Positions 36,646 to 59,723 of a DNA stretch of 64,000 bases are shown here, piece after piece. The stretch's first letter is position 1, and every line of letters begins with the position of its first letter. A program made the translations under genes and the position numbers. The stretch is from Clostridiales bacterium (lineage in GTDB: Bacteria; Bacillota; Clostridia; Oscillospirales; CAG-272): positions 24,678 through 88,677 of the forward strand of contig JAAWQR010000004.1 in NCBI GenBank assembly GCA_022800625.1, read 5' to 3'. Under the pieces are notes generated by a model, which ran no database searches, had not been told where the DNA came from, and saw only the letters and a program-made list of their open reading frames with translations.

Positions 36646-39600
36646 ATGGCAAGAAAAAAGATTTCCATGGATGGTAACACCGCCGCGGCTCACGCTTCCT
36701 ATGCGTTTACCGAAGTTGCTGCTATCTATCCGATCACGCCCTCTTCACCGATGGCTGACGTGACAGACACATGGTCTGCCGGCGGTCTCAAAAACATTAT
36801 GGGCGACACCGTAAAGGTTGTGGAGATGCAGTCTGAAGCAGGTGCGGCAGGTGCCGTTCACGGTTCTCTCGCAGCAGGCGCTCTGACTACTACATACACG
36901 GCTTCTCAGGGTCTTCTTCTTATGATCCCTAACATGTACAAGATCGCAGGCGAGCTTCTTCCTTGTGTTATCCATGTATCTGCCCGCTGCGTTGCAAGCC
37001 ATGCGCTCAATATCTTCGGAGATCACTCTGATATTTACGCTTGCCGTCAGACAGGCTTTGCTATGCTTGCTGAGACAAACCCGCAGGAGATCATGGACCT
37101 CGGCGCTGTAGCTCACCTCGCAGCTATCAAGGGACGTGTTCCTGTGCTCAACTTCTTCGACGGATTCAGAACCTCTCACGAGATTCAGAAAATTGAAGCT
37201 TGGGACTATGAAGATCTCGCTTCCATGGTTGACCGCGACGCTATCGCTGATTTCCGTGCACGCGCTATCAATCCGGAGCATCCTGTTCTCCGCGGCTCTG
37301 CAGAAAACGGAGATATCTTCTTCCAGCACAGAGAAGCTTGCAACAAGTATTATGATGCTTTCCCGGCTATCGTTGAGGATTACATGAATCAGGTCAACGA
37401 GAAGATCGGTACAGACTATAAGCTCTTCAACTACTACGGCGCACCCGACGCTGAGCGCGTTATCGTCGCTATGGGTTCAATCTGCGACGTTGCGGAAGAA
37501 GTTATCGATTATCTTCTCGCAGCAGGCGAGAAGGTAGGTCTTGTAAAGGTTCGCCTTTACCGTCCGTTCGTTGCGGAAAAGCTTGCTGAGGCTATCCCTG
37601 CAACATGTAAGAAGATCGCTGTTCTTGACAGAACAAAAGAGCCGGGTGCTCTCGGCGAGCCTCTCTATCTTGACGTTGTTGCAGCTCTCGCCGTTACAGG
37701 CAGAAGCGATATTAAAGTTGTCGGCGGACGCTACGGTCTCGGCTCAAAGGATACTCCTCCGCAGTCCGTATTCGCAGTATACAACAACCTCGCTCAGGAC
37801 GAGCCTAAGAACGGTTTCACCATTGGTATCGTTGACGACGTTACGGGACGTTCTCTCGTTGAAGTTCCCGCTCCCGATACAGCTGCTCCCGGTACAATAT
37901 CATGCAAGTTCTGGGGTCTTGGCGGAGACGGTACTGTCGGCGCTAACAAGAACTCAATTAAGATCATCGGCGACCACACCGACAAGTATATTCAGGCATA
38001 CTTCCAGTACGACTCAAAGAAAACAGGCGGCGTAACTATTTCACACCTCCGCTTCGGCGACAGCCCGATAAAGAGCCCGTACTACATCTCAAAGGCTGAC
38101 TTTGTTGCATGCCATAACCCGTCATATATCGTTAAGGGTTACAAGATAGTCAACGACGTAAAGCCGGGCGGTAAGTTCCTTCTTAACTGTCAGTGGACAC
38201 CCGCTGAGGTTGAAGAGCACCTCCCTGCTGAGGCTAAGAAATACATCGCTGACAATAACATCGAATTCTATATCGTAAACGCTATCGACAAGGCGCGCGA
38301 AATCGGAATGGGCAAGAGAACAAACACCATTCTCCAGTCCGCATTCTTCGCACTTGCAAACATCATGCCGATAGCCGAAGCTGTCGACTACATGAAGTAC
38401 ATGGCTAAGAAGTCATACTCCAAGAAGGGTGACGCTGTAGTCGAGATGAACTACAAAGCTATCGACGCAGGCGTTGATGCAATCGTTAAGGTTGAGATTC
38501 CCGAAACATGGAAGAGTCTCGATCCTGCAGCTCCTGCAAAAACCGCCGAGGGAGAGAGAGCTGACCTTGTTAAATTCGTAAACGAGATCGTAACTCCCGT
38601 AGGAATGATGCAGGGAGACGCACTTCCCGTATCTGCATTCACAGATCATGCAGACGGTACGTTCCCGCAGGGTTCCGCTGCATATGAGAAGCGCGGCGTT
38701 GCCGTTGACGTTCCTGTATGGCATCCGGAAAATTGTATCCAGTGTAACCAGTGTGCGTTCGTCTGCCCGCATGCCGCTATCCGTCCTGTTGCTATGACTG
38801 CTGACGAGGCTGCCGCAGCTCCTGAGTCAACTAAGTTTGCACCGAAGCCGGTAGTAAAGACCGATTACAAGTTTACAATGGCTATCTCTCCGCTGGACTG
38901 CATGGGATGCACACTCTGCGTCAAGGCATGTCCGACGAAGGAAGGCAAGAGAGCGCTTGAGATGACTTCTCAGGAATCTCAGCTCGATCAGGCTTCCGCT
39001 TGGGATTACGCTGTAAACAAGGTTTCCGAGAAATCCGATATCATCGGAAAGACTGTTAAAGCAAGCCAGTTCAAGCAGCCTCTGCTTGAGTTCTCAGGCT
39101 CTTGCGCAGGATGTGCAGAGACTTCATACGCACGTCTTATTACACAGCTCTTCGGTGAAAGAATGTACATCTCCAACGCTACGGGATGCTCTTCAATTTG
39201 GGGAGGCAGCGCACCTGCAACTCCGTACACCGTAAACAATACATCCGGTCACGGTCCTGCATGGGCTAACTCACTCTTTGAGGACAACGCAGAGCACGGT
39301 CTCGGTATGTTCCTCGGACAGAAGGTTATCCGTGAGAGATATATCGAAAAGGTTAAGGCTCTTGCAGCTCTTTATGAAGAGATCGGAGCTACACAGGAAT
39401 ACAAGGATGCGGTCTCTGATTACCTTGCAACAGTAGACGATGCTGAAGCTAACGAAAAGGCTACAAGAACATTGGTTAAGCTCCTTGAAGAGGATGTTGC
39501 ACGCGGAACATGCCAAAGCGTACCCGCTGAGCGCGAGATTCTCGAAGGTAAGGATTACCTCAACAAGAAGTCTGTATGGATCTTCGGCGGAGACGGATGG

Positions 39601-40221
39601 GCATATGACATCGGCTTCGGCGGTCTCGACCATGTAATCGCTTCAGGCGAGAACGTAAACATCATGGTATTTGATACCGAGGTATACTCTAACACAGGCG
39701 GTCAGGCTTCCAAGTCCTCAAACATCGGTCAGGTTGCTCAGTTCGCAGCAGCAGGTAAGGCTATCGGTAAGAAGAATCTCGCTGAAATCGCTATGTCCTA
39801 CGGCTACGTATACGTTGCACAGATCGCTATGGGTGCTGATATGAATCAGACAATGAAGGCTCTCATCGAAGCTGAGGCTTACAACGGACCTTCAATCATC
39901 ATCGGCTATGCTCCCTGCGAAATGCACGGAGTTAAGGGCGGCATGACAAACTGCCAGCTCGAAATGAAGCGCGCCGTTGAGGCAGGCTACTGGCAGATGT
40001 TCAGATACAATCCTGCGGCTAAGGCTGAAGGAAAGAATCCGTTCACTCTGGACTCAAAAGAGCCGACAGGCAACTACATCGACTTCATTAAGAGCGAAAA
40101 CCGTTACAGCAGACTTGCAGCTTCCAATCCCGAGAGAGCTGAAAAACTCTTTAAGATGGCTGAGGAAAACGCTAAGGCTAAGTACGACAGACTCACAAAG
40201 TTCGGAAAGCTGTACGAGTAA
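36646..40221 (+). CDS. nifJ: Pyruvate:ferredoxin (flavodoxin) oxidoreductase
   Basis: YPITPSS, EMQSEAGAAGA, CIQCNQCAFVCPH and CMGCTLCVKACP ferredoxin motifs, GSCAGCAET, GGDGWAYDIG TPP motif. Confidence 0.98.
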   Translation: MARKKISMDGNTAAAHASYAFTEVAAIYPITPSSPMADVTDTWSAGGLKNIMGDTVKVVEMQSEAGAAGAVHGSLAAGALTTTYTASQGLLLMIPNMYKIAGELLPCVIHVSARCVASHALNIFGDHSDIYACRQTGFAMLAETNPQEIMDLGAVAHLAAIKGRVPVLNFFDGFRTSHEIQKIEAWDYEDLASMVDRDAIADFRARAINPEHPVLRGSAENGDIFFQHREACNKYYDAFPAIVEDYMNQVNEKIGTDYKLFNYYGAPDAERVIVAMGSICDVAEEVIDYLLAAGEKVGLVKVRLYRPFVAEKLAEAIPATCKKIAVLDRTKEPGALGEPLYLDVVAALAVTGRSDIKVVGGRYGLGSKDTPPQSVFAVYNNLAQDEPKNGFTIGIVDDVTGRSLVEVPAPDTAAPGTISCKFWGLGGDGTVGANKNSIKIIGDHTDKYIQAYFQYDSKKTGGVTISHLRFGDSPIKSPYYISKADFVACHNPSYIVKGYKIVNDVKPGGKFLLNCQWTPAEVEEHLPAEAKKYIADNNIEFYIVNAIDKAREIGMGKRTNTILQSAFFALANIMPIAEAVDYMKYMAKKSYSKKGDAVVEMNYKAIDAGVDAIVKVEIPETWKSLDPAAPAKTAEGERADLVKFVNEIVTPVGMMQGDALPVSAFTDHADGTFPQGSAAYEKRGVAVDVPVWHPENCIQCNQCAFVCPHAAIRPVAMTADEAAAAPESTKFAPKPVVKTDYKFTMAISPLDCMGCTLCVKACPTKEGKRALEMTSQESQLDQASAWDYAVNKVSEKSDIIGKTVKASQFKQPLLEFSGSCAGCAETSYARLITQLFGERMYISNATGCSSIWGGSAPATPYTVNNTSGHGPAWANSLFEDNAEHGLGMFLGQKVIRERYIEKVKALAALYEEIGATQEYKDAVSDYLATVDDAEANEKATRTLVKLLEEDVARGTCQSVPAEREILEGKDYLNKKSVWIFGGDGWAYDIGFGGLDHVIASGENVNIMVFDTEVYSNTGGQASKSSNIGQVAQFAAAGKAIGKKNLAEIAMSYGYVYVAQIAMGADMNQTMKALIEAEAYNGPSIIIGYAPCEMHGVKGGMTNCQLEMKRAVEAGYWQMFRYNPAAKAEGKNPFTLDSKEPTGNYIDFIKSENRYSRLAASNPERAEKLFKMAEENAKAKYDRLTKFGKLYE

Positions 40222-40233
40222 TATAACTGATAC

Positions 40234-40261
40234 AAAGGGAGATGCGTTTGCATCTCCCTTT
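40234..40261 (+). terminator. Intrinsic terminator of nifJ (left copy of a duplicated hairpin)
   Basis: aaagggagatgc-gttt-gcatctcccttt. Confidence 0.85.
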
Positions 40262-40861
40262 ATTGTAAATAAAGCCACTTCCGCGTAGGATTTTATCGAA
40301 GTGGCTCCGCAGTGCCTGCGTAATCTATGTCGCACTTTCTTTCGTGAAAGAAAGTTGCGCAAAGAAAGCCTTCCGGGAGAATGTATTCCCCCGGAAGCTC
40401 CTCCCTTCTCTGATCTCCGCGATAACATCCGCGCGATTCGTGAACGAACCGCTTCGATATCCTCCTGAAATGAAGTTTGTGGGGACATGGGCGGCTAATA
40501 CCGAAGCAGTCCATACTACATCATCCGCTACGCGGAATTAGGGACAGCTCGGATGTTTTGCGGAGCATAGTACGGGGTAAGCTTCAAGGGTGCGTAGCCC
40601 TTGAAGGTTTTTTGTGAACCTCTCTTTTATAAAAGAAAGTGCATAGTAGCGGCTCTGCAAGCAGCGTGGAGTTAGCTTAACTAAAGAAGCTAATGTATGG
40701 AAAAAGAACATGCGCTTACGAGAGTTCCTGCATTCTGCTTCACGGAAGTAGGCAGATTCAGTTAAACTAAAAAATAACGCGTCAGTTTTTTAGTTTGGCT
40801 TATGCCGCTCTGCGTGAATAGGCGCTGTTTTACACTTTGCGATTGTCAGTCTGCACTCTGT
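40262..40861. mobile_element. Putative non-autonomous palindromic element (REPIN/MITE-like) or structured ncRNA, no transposase
   Basis: ~100-bp imperfect inverted arms 40332-40431 / 40550-40642, dense hairpins, flanked by near-duplicate terminators; no credible ORF. Confidence 0.55.
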
Positions 40862-40888
40862 GGGAGATGCTTCTACATCTCCCTTTTT
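40862..40888. terminator. Right copy of the duplicated terminator hairpin
   Basis: gggagatgc-ttct-acatctccc-ttttt. Confidence 0.75.
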
Positions 40889-40910
40889 ATTATAATAATC
40901 GCAGTACATT

Positions 40911-41243
40911 TTATGCTCCGCAATTATTTTTTATTTTATTTTGAAGTCTTCCTATAAGTTCAAGCAGCATAATTAAATCATCTGTTTCAAGATCTTTCAT
41001 TCCGTCCACTGCTCTTGCTATAAGCTCAGGGGTATCGGTTCCCTCATCAAAAAACTGCCCTGGCGTCATTTCAAAATAATCGCATATCGCAAAAAATTCC
41101 TTCATAGGAGGAAGAGCTTTACCTGACGATATGTTATACACATAACCTCTGCTGTGTCCGAGGTCATAACTCATTTGATACTCAGATACACCCTTTTTCA
41201 ACCTGAGATATGTTATTCGGTCTACTACAAATTTCTCATACAT
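40911..41243 (-). CDS. XRE-family HTH transcriptional regulator
   Basis: RITYLRLKKGVSEYQMSYDLGHSRGYVYNISSGKALP..EFFAICDYF HTH; GGGAGG RBS. Confidence 0.9.
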   Translation of the reverse strand: MYEKFVVDRITYLRLKKGVSEYQMSYDLGHSRGYVYNISSGKALPPMKEFFAICDYFEMTPGQFFDEGTDTPELIARAVDGMKDLETDDLIMLLELIGRLQNKIKNNCGA

Positions 41244-41315
41244 ATAAATCCCTCCCATTACATAATTATAATAGTAATATAAGAGAGATTAGTCATATAT
41301 TCTTTGTTGTAGACA

Positions 41316-59471: not shown

Positions 59472-59509
59472 AGGCTTAGCGATAGCAAACAACGCTATGC
59501 AAAAATATA

Positions 59510-59682
59510 CTGATAGAGGAGCACCTCCGATGAGTACCCGAAAACAAGGCAATCCGCATTGCCGCATGAGATTTCGGTGAAGGGCGAGTGGTGCCGAAGG
59601 TTGACCGCTGCGGAGCGGTAAATCTGGGACGCTGTGCGAAAGCCTGCGTACTGTCACCGTGAAACGGTGGAGGGCTATCTGT
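59510..59682 (+). ncRNA. Lysine riboswitch (L-box) aptamer
   Basis: P1 gatag/ctatc, AGAGG.GC, ATGAGTA, AAGGG...GCCGAA, CTGTCACCGTGAAACGGTGGAG.GC; upstream of dapA-dapB. Confidence 0.92.
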
Positions 59683-59723
59683 GTTTTGATTCTCAGCATA
59701 TGAGTATGTTATATTACACAGAG

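Follow-up and report, generated by a model that had tools for sequence, protein, structure and literature searches.

A decayed repeat pair downstream of nifJ and a mirror rule at the ends of a palindromic repeat family in uncultured ruminant-gut Clostridia

The gap downstream of nifJ, the gene for pyruvate:ferredoxin oxidoreductase, in an uncultured Clostridia bacterium (GenBank assembly GCA_022800625.1) contains a non-coding module with inverted arms, which was analysed within a window of 64,000 nucleotides (contig JAAWQR010000004.1, positions 24,678 to 88,677 of the forward strand; coordinates without a contig label refer to this window). The module is a decayed, internally deleted pair of units of a multi-copy repeat, whose intact pairs join two types of inner end, termed A and B, and the repeat family is essentially confined to one genus of uncultured ruminant-gut Clostridia. 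We consider it probable that the module is a copy of a genus-restricted, non-autonomous palindromic mosaic repeat acting at the DNA level, of the same kind as repetitive extragenic palindromes (REP), bacterial interspersed mosaic elements (BIME), and miniature inverted-repeat transposable elements (MITE). Each unit of the repeat ends in a pyrimidine/purine hairpin followed by a short purine run, and across species this run follows the pyrimidine arm of the hairpin as its mirror image in most alleles.

The host genome (designated G000; other G numbers denote congeneric genomes) comprises 2.14 Mb in 55 contigs, which carry C numbers. A BLAST search with the interval against its own assembly gave 115 matches, and an nhmmer profile built from nine full elements gave 57, about 25 of which are near-full units of ~330 nt. 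A covariance model of the end module, termed R1, found 39 end modules. With this many copies in its own genome, the module is not an orphan, as the preliminary description had called it. One end of the unit consists of an 11-bp pyrimidine/purine (Y/R) hairpin, P1, a linker of 2-3 nt, a purine run of 6-8 nt, and a GC-rich hairpin, P2, and R1 describes this P1-run-P2 arrangement. Beyond P2 lie a third hairpin, P3, and several conserved sequence blocks, of which CTGAAATGAAGT, GGGGACATGGTGTCGG, GAGATTGCTCCGCAG, CTGTTCAAAGAGC, and GTTAGGC are found in the inner ~200 nt. The copies are 70-85% identical to one another, many are truncated, and several run into contig ends. A minimal element of ~100 nt with the order P1-run-P2-run'-P1', in which one P2 serves two end modules of different alleles, was found at C31:38793-38895.

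In G000, units are joined back to back in ten inverted pairs, which are 600-700 bp long and AT-rich at the centre (C48:16108-16818, C41:869-1569, C18:19091-19817, C10:2631-3369, C10:9589-10283, C1:3855-4548, C11:2-614, C4:10333-11099, C2:13776-14419, and C3:56278-56964). All ten join one A-type with one B-type inner end, and therefore the entity that is repeated in this species is a pair with built-in polarity. An additional pair of 1.3 kb (C25:17004-18380), consisting of inverted half units around a gene for a 187-aa GNAT acetyltransferase (C25:17437-18000), looks like a passenger-carrying version of the pair.

The local stems of the repeat are conserved. The change from CG/CG to AA/TT in P2, which the preliminary description had considered compensatory, is real, and in an alignment of 27 copies 11 of the 23 P1/P2 pairs vary on both sides, compared with 7.0 ± 1.4 in shuffled data, where none of 500 shuffles reached 11. 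In the same alignment, 88.7% of the P1/P2 cells are paired, versus 51-61% after a shift of the partner by 1-2 columns. Variants of P1, P2, and P3 are shuffled between the halves of elements, and the similarity between the two halves of an element does not exceed that between halves taken from different ones, in agreement with the earlier suggestion that the local hairpins are kept rather than the long duplex. No consistent fold of the inner ~200 nt was obtained with RNAalifold, with per-sequence folds placed on the alignment, or with a strict covariation scan, which yielded only the hairpins P0 to P3 (P0 being a REP-like palindrome outside P1) and a weak P5; single-sequence folds from different species hint at a closing helix and are not reliably alignable.

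The relationship between the purine run and P1 was analysed in 40 distinct alleles parsed from 13 genomes, with the run scored under two readings. In the mirror reading, the Y arm together with the first loop base (L1) has the run as its parallel complement, the 3' end of the run standing opposite L1; in the direct-repeat reading, the run copies part of the purine arm. The mirror reading was perfect in 33 of the 40 alleles, in one fixed register, and the direct-repeat reading in 19; compared allele by allele, the mirror was better in 17 and the direct repeat in 4, with 19 ties. The observed mirror match of 95.9% was not reached in any of 5000 shuffles of runs among alleles, either globally or within species. 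The mirrored changes include the middle C/T of the arm and tract lengths of 5, 6, and 7; asymmetric arms are mirrored as well (CTTCTTT with AAGAAAG, and CTTCTTC with AAGAAGA), as is the first loop base (C with G, and T with A). In G015, two near-identical copies are distinguished solely by L1, which is C in one and T in the other, and by the last base of the run, G and A, respectively. The loop-base rule is kept with the non-self-complementary loops TGTG, TTAT, TTGT, and TGCG, and in the minimal element on C31 each run fits its own P1 and not the run across P2.

On the strand with the pyrimidine run, the pattern can be read as T·A-T and C+·G-C triples; the run would then be parallel to the purine arm and the loop purine that follows it, which would explain why the loop rule tracks L1 and not the fourth loop base, L4. 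Templated copying cannot yield a mirror relation, while a third strand in the major groove predicts it, and the persistence of the mirror with non-complementary loops fits a Hoogsteen reading of the purine strand on the strand carrying the T-run, as far as can be judged from the alleles. Two other arrangements were considered and rejected: Watson-Crick pairing of the Y arm with the run, which corresponds to the direct-repeat reading and is perfect in only 19 alleles, and an H-DNA fold-back onto the adjacent half of the duplex, which on our reading of the rule predicts the wrong first base for the TGTG-loop alleles. One could hypothesise, although we would put this at somewhat less than an even chance, that selection keeps the mirror because an intramolecular T(U)·A-T(U) / C+·G-C triple helix forms beside P2 in the single-stranded end of the element, be it DNA or RNA, and that this fold serves as a signal for a copying, processing, or binding machinery.

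The closest named relatives of the host are metagenome-assembled genomes from the guts of sheep, water buffalo, and roe deer. The R1 module was found in 13 of the 20 genomes of the genus, with 39, 30, 28, 20, 13, 9, 8, 7, 3, 2, 1, 1, and 1 copies and seven zeros. Among 151 genomes from 97 genera of the bacterial family only G000 scored well with R1; of the three weak matches outside it (E values of 1e-4 to 8e-4), one was in a congener, G006, and two were in other genera. The exact core motif CTGAAATGAAGT-N4-GGGGACATGG had no match outside G000 in 185,579 species genomes and the JGI metagenome contigs, and the element had none in phage and plasmid collections. No Rfam family overlaps positions 40267-40843 at the gathering score or at E <= 10. 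The proposal of a non-coding, non-autonomous palindromic element in the preliminary description is supported, and with no match in Rfam, phages, plasmids, or the literature the family is apparently undescribed. The arrangement of units differs by species: they form inner-to-inner pairs in G000, P1-to-P1 pairs around a conserved centre of ~215 nt in G011, and solo or tandem copies in G008. In G011 (L053-L057), the far ends of the units carry two or three tandem sub-repeats of ~70 nt (ttgtcgcc...aaactccacgcg).

The copy in the window lies in the 690 nt that separate the nifJ stop codon from a helix-turn-helix (HTH)/XRE-like open reading frame (ORF), and repeat modules occupy most of positions 40262-40861. 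The inverted arms reported in the preliminary description are real: 35 nt (40332-40366 versus 40608-40642) are 77% complementary, and both arms match R1, at 40332-40405 on the + strand with 85 bits and at 40574-40642 on the - strand with 64.6 bits. Local hairpins were computed at 40334-40355, 40370-40397, and 40579-40609. From the outside to the inside, each arm contains the Y/R hairpin P1, a 2-nt linker, the purine run, and the GC hairpin P2, matching the earlier outline of the arms; the arm sequence is GCA-CTTTCTTT-[CGTG]-AAAGAAAG-n-TGC for P1 and AAAGAAAG for the run. The central stems gcttcg/cgaagc and tccgc-tac-gcgga are also present. The interval first assigned to the module, 40332-40642, holds for its core but not for its full extent, since positions 40311 to 40690, approximately, are homologous to other copies. 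Both copies of P2 are scored as terminator-like and face outward, a pyrimidine run lying 3' of P2 on the opposite strand. In the left half the match to the unit profile continues to about 40500; the halves cover profile positions 28-217 (left) and 4-179 (right) of about 350 and stop at 217 and 179, so that both inner halves are deleted in this copy. The features of the locus are as follows.

36646-40221 (+): nifJ, pyruvate:ferredoxin oxidoreductase (PFOR), 1191 aa.
40234-40266 (+): nifJ intrinsic terminator, AAAGGGAGATGC-gttt-GCATCTCCCTTT plus a T-rich tail; first copy of a direct duplication of ~25-40 nt that brackets the insert.
40275-40304: outer flanking hairpin CCACTTC...GAAGTGG, at the site of the REP-like P0 palindrome in other copies.
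40305-40331: outer spacer ccgcagtgcctgcgtaatctatgtc, common to other copies, which mirrors 40643-40668.
40332-40358 (+): left P1, GCA-CTTTCTTT-[CGTG]-AAAGAAAG-t-TGC, an 11-bp Y/R hairpin with one bulge.
40361-40368 (+): left purine run AAAGAAAG, which mirrors the Y arm and first loop base without exception (8/8).
40370-40397 (+): left P2, a GC hairpin; a pyrimidine run follows on the - strand, where it is terminator-like.
40398-40489 (+): left inner blocks CTCC(T)CCC, GATAACATCCGCGC, hairpin P3 (gattcgtgaacgaacc), CTGAAATGAAGT, and GGGGACATGG.
40516-40541: REP-like mini-palindrome, CTAC atca TCCGC tac GCGGA attAG, where the deletions of the two truncated halves meet.
40550-40581 (-): right inner remnant, the reverse complement of GTACTATGCTCCGCAAAACATCCGA.
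40582-40606 (+): right P2, CTTCAAGGG-tgcgtag-CCCTTGAAG, terminator-like on the + strand.
40608-40613 (+): right pyrimidine run TTTTTT, decayed, the middle C predicted by the mirror rule being gone.
40616-40642 (-): right P1, an allele with a TATA loop, decayed, with one A·C/G·T mispair and GCA changed to GAA at the foot of the stem.
40643-40861: right outer modules, comprising the mirror spacer, agcta/tagct hairpins, and a degenerate P0/REP-like palindrome at ~40725-40755.
40862-40890 (+): second copy of the nifJ terminator, diverged (88% over 25 nt); a + strand terminator, which is not that of the XRE gene.
40911-41258 (-): HTH/XRE-like ORF, 115 aa.

The right outer pieces recur beside other copies, BLAST query positions 464-577 matching C4, C18, C20, C40, C43, and C17. 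The two terminator copies (40237-40261 and 40862-40886, 88% identical) extend into TTTATTGTAA and TTTATTATAA, respectively. Together with their T-rich tails (40237-40268 and 40862-40895) they form a direct repeat 625 bp apart, which flanks the whole insert, and no + strand gene ends at the second copy. This duplication looks like a local one made on arrival of the insert. The sole Rfam match at the gathering score in the window is a lysine riboswitch (RF00168, 82.4 bits) at 59506-59685.

A second, smaller family in G000, to which the junction palindrome at 40516-40541 belongs, is a REP-like palindrome of ~26 nt, CTAC-(n)-TTCCGC-nnn-GCGGAA-(n)-GTAG, of which about 30 strict copies were found. 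It lies just outside P1 in most large copies (e.g., C1:3855, C18:19091, and C11:659) and is also inserted in the loops of P1 or P3 (C10:9646, the right half of the C18 copy, C53, and C3). A solo truncated unit of the large family (C53:8424-8707) sits between two long + strand ORFs, which by eye resemble gyrB and gyrA. The copies on C10 and C41 share a left flank of ~200 bp (C10:2431-2630 and C41:670-870), which is identical and includes a perfect TTGACA-18-TATAAT promoter on the - strand, and this suggests a larger duplicated segment. An unrelated family of five copies also combines a Y/R hairpin with a purine run, CTTCTTTCTTT-gta-AAAGAAAGAAG-C-AAAGAAAC-TTTgagaag, and is possibly a leader or a small RNA; its copies are on C20, C30, and C31 (- strand, at offsets 31065, 16372, and 3263 from the end of the reverse complement) and at C37:~5263 and C53:~5748 (+ strand).

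Whether the repeat acts as DNA or RNA can be judged from its orientation and from the mispairs in its helices. A structured RNA had been named as an option in the preliminary description. Each unit would then be a structured RNA or the 3' module of one, read from the inner end outward and ending at P2 and the U-run, either as a small RNA gene or as a terminator or stabiliser of the upstream gene; in the case of read-through, the U-run and P1 would form a U·A-U triple helix shielding the 3' end, as in the element for nuclear expression (ENE) and MALAT1. Such a function would account for P2 and its pyrimidine run being terminator-like and directed outward in every scanned copy, for the alternation of conserved blocks with covarying stems, and for the polarity of the mirror rule, which favours the strand of the T/U-run, i.e., the terminator strand; moreover, predicted minimum-energy folds of single sequences from G012 and G003 place a long-range helix around the inner domain. 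However, the units are not oriented relative to the flanking genes. In the first sample 13 were in 'terminator-sense' versus 14 in the other orientation, and in a second, cleaner set, comprising 25 solo modules over 339 kb, the counts were 10 versus 9 for the inner and 11 versus 12 for the outer neighbour, while the strand of the T-run was that of the local majority of genes in only 8 of these 25, which is not significant. Thus, although the hairpin and T-run of an intrinsic terminator are present, their orientation to neighbouring genes is random, and the two counts speak against the role of terminator or 3'-untranslated region suggested by an early impression from G008. The neighbours are housekeeping genes, encoding RnfB, RnfC, MatE, FolD, an ABC ATPase, a histidine kinase, thymidylate kinase, and a Na/Ca exchanger. 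On one 50.7-kb contig of another congener (G010:C7, L217-L219), all seven modules point in the same direction (+). Helix mispairs comprise 13 G·T and 18 A·C, with no G·U excess, and therefore both strands look equally constrained. No sigma-70-like promoter recurred at a fixed position, nor did the AT-rich centre show consistent divergent promoters, and what surrounds the inner end varies by species. Furthermore, working termination at the U-run would leave P1 untranscribed, many copies are truncated, and Rfam gave no match. Given the random orientation, the mispair counts, and the lack of a consistent promoter, a structured RNA is unlikely, and the family most likely acts at the DNA level.

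At the DNA level, the copy-number spread, intergenic sites, assembly breaks, truncated copies, and fixed A/B pair fit a non-autonomous mobile or duplicative element. The preliminary description had pointed to REPIN/RAYT or IS200/IS605 systems, in which case the repeat would be a miniature element whose hairpins serve as single-stranded DNA substrates of a Y1 HUH transposase (RAYT/TnpA) encoded elsewhere. One intact, strong Y1 (IS200-like) transposase gene is indeed present in G000, on a contig other than that of the window; Y1_Tnp genes in the genus occur in 4 of 13 module carriers versus none of 7 non-carriers, the lack of target duplications is expected of HUH enzymes, and the units are accompanied by small palindromes tagged with GTAG/CTAC. 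Nevertheless, R1 had no match at E <= 1 in the ~1.5 kb that flank each of the 11 Y1_Tnp loci of the genus on both sides, and the flanks of the IS200-like gene of G000, read directly, are unrelated to the module. G011 and G010 carry 28 and 13 copies, respectively, with no Y1_Tnp gene, both genomes being incomplete, and the ends of the element are inverted repeats, not the left and right ends on the same strand, of a unit ten times the size of a REP. With no module within ~1.5 kb of any Y1 locus of the genus, a link to these transposases is quite improbable. It has also been considered that the family has neither function nor mobility, its copies being relics of old duplications kept palindromic by template-switch 'correction', and the run a linked, low-complexity, A/T-rich hitch-hiker. 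The age and frequent truncation of the copies, the lack of a G·U signal, and the symmetry of most run/arm alleles (AAAGAAA), which fit the mirror and direct readings alike (19 of 40), would be in line with this. Arguments against it are the copy numbers of 0 to 39 between congeners, the pair architecture being fixed in all ten pairs, and the mirror relation, which goes beyond templated copying and extends to asymmetric arms, and we regard such relics as a very improbable explanation.

Several observations weigh against the preferred reading, that of a non-autonomous DNA repeat with a proposed triple-helical fold at its end. Neither an empty site nor presence or absence between strains was found. 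In 13 congeners nifJ is followed by a plain terminator and then by different genes, and this loss of synteny precludes an empty-site comparison there; the only other assembly of the locus, a contig with nifJ, is identical and ends inside the element, and the XRE protein is not on record in other assemblies. No target-site duplication was detected: at eight pair boundaries, no shared word recurred with the same length or at the same place. Neither an autonomous copy nor a recombinase accompanying the repeat was found in G000, in the 20 congeners, or in the phage and plasmid collections, although several copies in G000 end at contig breaks, behind which an autonomous copy could lie. Two candidates for an autonomous copy were rejected: the cargo of the 1.3-kb pair on C25 is the acetyltransferase gene, with no transposase, and an inverted pair 2.7 kb apart in G008 encloses ZapA, a C_GCAxxG protein, and a CAAX protease. 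At their level of identity the copies are old, hence there was no recent burst. As for the fold, compensatory changes in DNA palindromes can come from template switching, and covariation may not mean selection. The alleles are kin by descent and lie only a few bases away from the run, so that the shuffle tests overstate independence: roughly 6-8 separate mirrored changes were counted, and about half of the alleles are symmetric and uninformative between the two readings. Finally, with a linker of 2 nt next to a stem of 11 bp, there is little room for a third strand to fold back unless the 3 bp at the foot of the stem come apart.

The closest parallel to the end of the unit is found among the PIT/TMECO/BoxC sequences, intrastrand-triplex repeats of E. 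coli and other Proteobacteria, which form inverted pairs of two types and have no known function (Holder et al. 2015, PMC4666352); the TMECO consensus is CCCTCNCCC-N3-6-GGGNGAGGG-N3-GGGNGAGGG, about 35 nt long (PMC4666352). Like these, the present repeats are dispersed and intergenic, contain a Y arm, a loop, an R arm, a short loop, and a second run mirroring the arm (33 of 40 alleles showing this third run as a perfect mirror in one register), often form inverted pairs of two types, vary strongly in copy number between close relatives, and have no known function or mobiliser. The TMECO consensus itself is absent, the sequence here being CTTTCTTT-CGTG-AAAGAAAG-n5-6-AAAGAAAG. TMECO is G/C-rich (CCCTCNCCC / GGGNGAGGG), free-standing, and proteobacterial, while the motif described here is A/T-rich, lies terminally in a ~330-nt unit, next to a GC hairpin, and belongs to Clostridia; the purine form of TMECO was shown in vitro, whereas the polarity of the present sequences would favour the pyrimidine (T·A-T) form.

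The family resembles REP/BIME/REPIN repeats in being non-coding, hairpin-forming, mosaic, and intergenic, in its inverted pairs, in the conservation of structure above sequence, and in the absence of target duplications. However, a REP or REPIN unit has 20-40 nt compared with about 330 nt here, the GTAG tag of REP is missing from the large unit, so that only the accompanying mini-palindromes carry GTAG and fit the description of a REP, and no cognate RAYT flanked by the repeat, as in REPIN/RAYT systems, was found among the 11 Y1_Tnp loci of the genus and their ~1.5-kb flanks. The miniature elements of IS200/IS605 (PATEs) have same-strand, non-inverted ends, in contrast to the inverted-repeat ends of this family. 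Bacterial MITEs include Correia/NEMIS, RUP, and bcr1; the family shares with MITEs a non-autonomous character, inverted ends, and a fixed left/right asymmetry, as if internally deleted from a longer parent. Its inverted 'ends', in contrast, extend over about 300 nt and agree to only 70-80%, target-site duplications are lacking, and no parent insertion sequence was found.

RNA triple helices that protect 3' ends are exemplified by the ENE of PAN RNA, MALAT1, and ENE-like elements in the RNAs of plant and fungal transposons, which clamp an A-rich 3' tail inside an internal loop. They share with the present motif a U-rich strand parallel to the purine strand of a U-A stem and broken by C+·G-C; here, however, the U-run is 5' of a simple hairpin, and a function at the RNA level is disfavoured. 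We know of no bacterial example of an ENE/MALAT1-type triple helix.

Taken together, the repeat would behave as a DNA-level element of the REP/BIME/MITE type, copied in trans by a machinery that recognises the fold of single-stranded DNA and not the bare sequence. At its end, the pyrimidine run would make a second set of contacts with the purine arm of the adjacent hairpin, and, judging by the pattern of bases alone, the resulting T·A-T / C+·G-C intrastrand triple helix would stack beside P2.

As a repeat family, this is one more undescribed hairpin-rich mosaic element of uncultured gut Clostridia and as such is ordinary; its presence accounts for the assembly breaks and for the 690-nt gap after nifJ. 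The mirror rule would have wider implications. Bacterial intrastrand triplex motifs have so far been found by pattern search and folded only in vitro, and their function is not known, while here the arm, the loop base, and the tract length vary across 13 genomes and the run follows them mirror-wise almost always. If the interpretation is correct, this would be, as far as we could find, the first comparative evidence, in the form of three-way covariation, for a selected triple helix in a bacterial repeat. It would also provide an A/T-rich Gram-positive counterpart for the unexplained PIT/BoxC class and a natural allelic series for the study of triple helices in cells.

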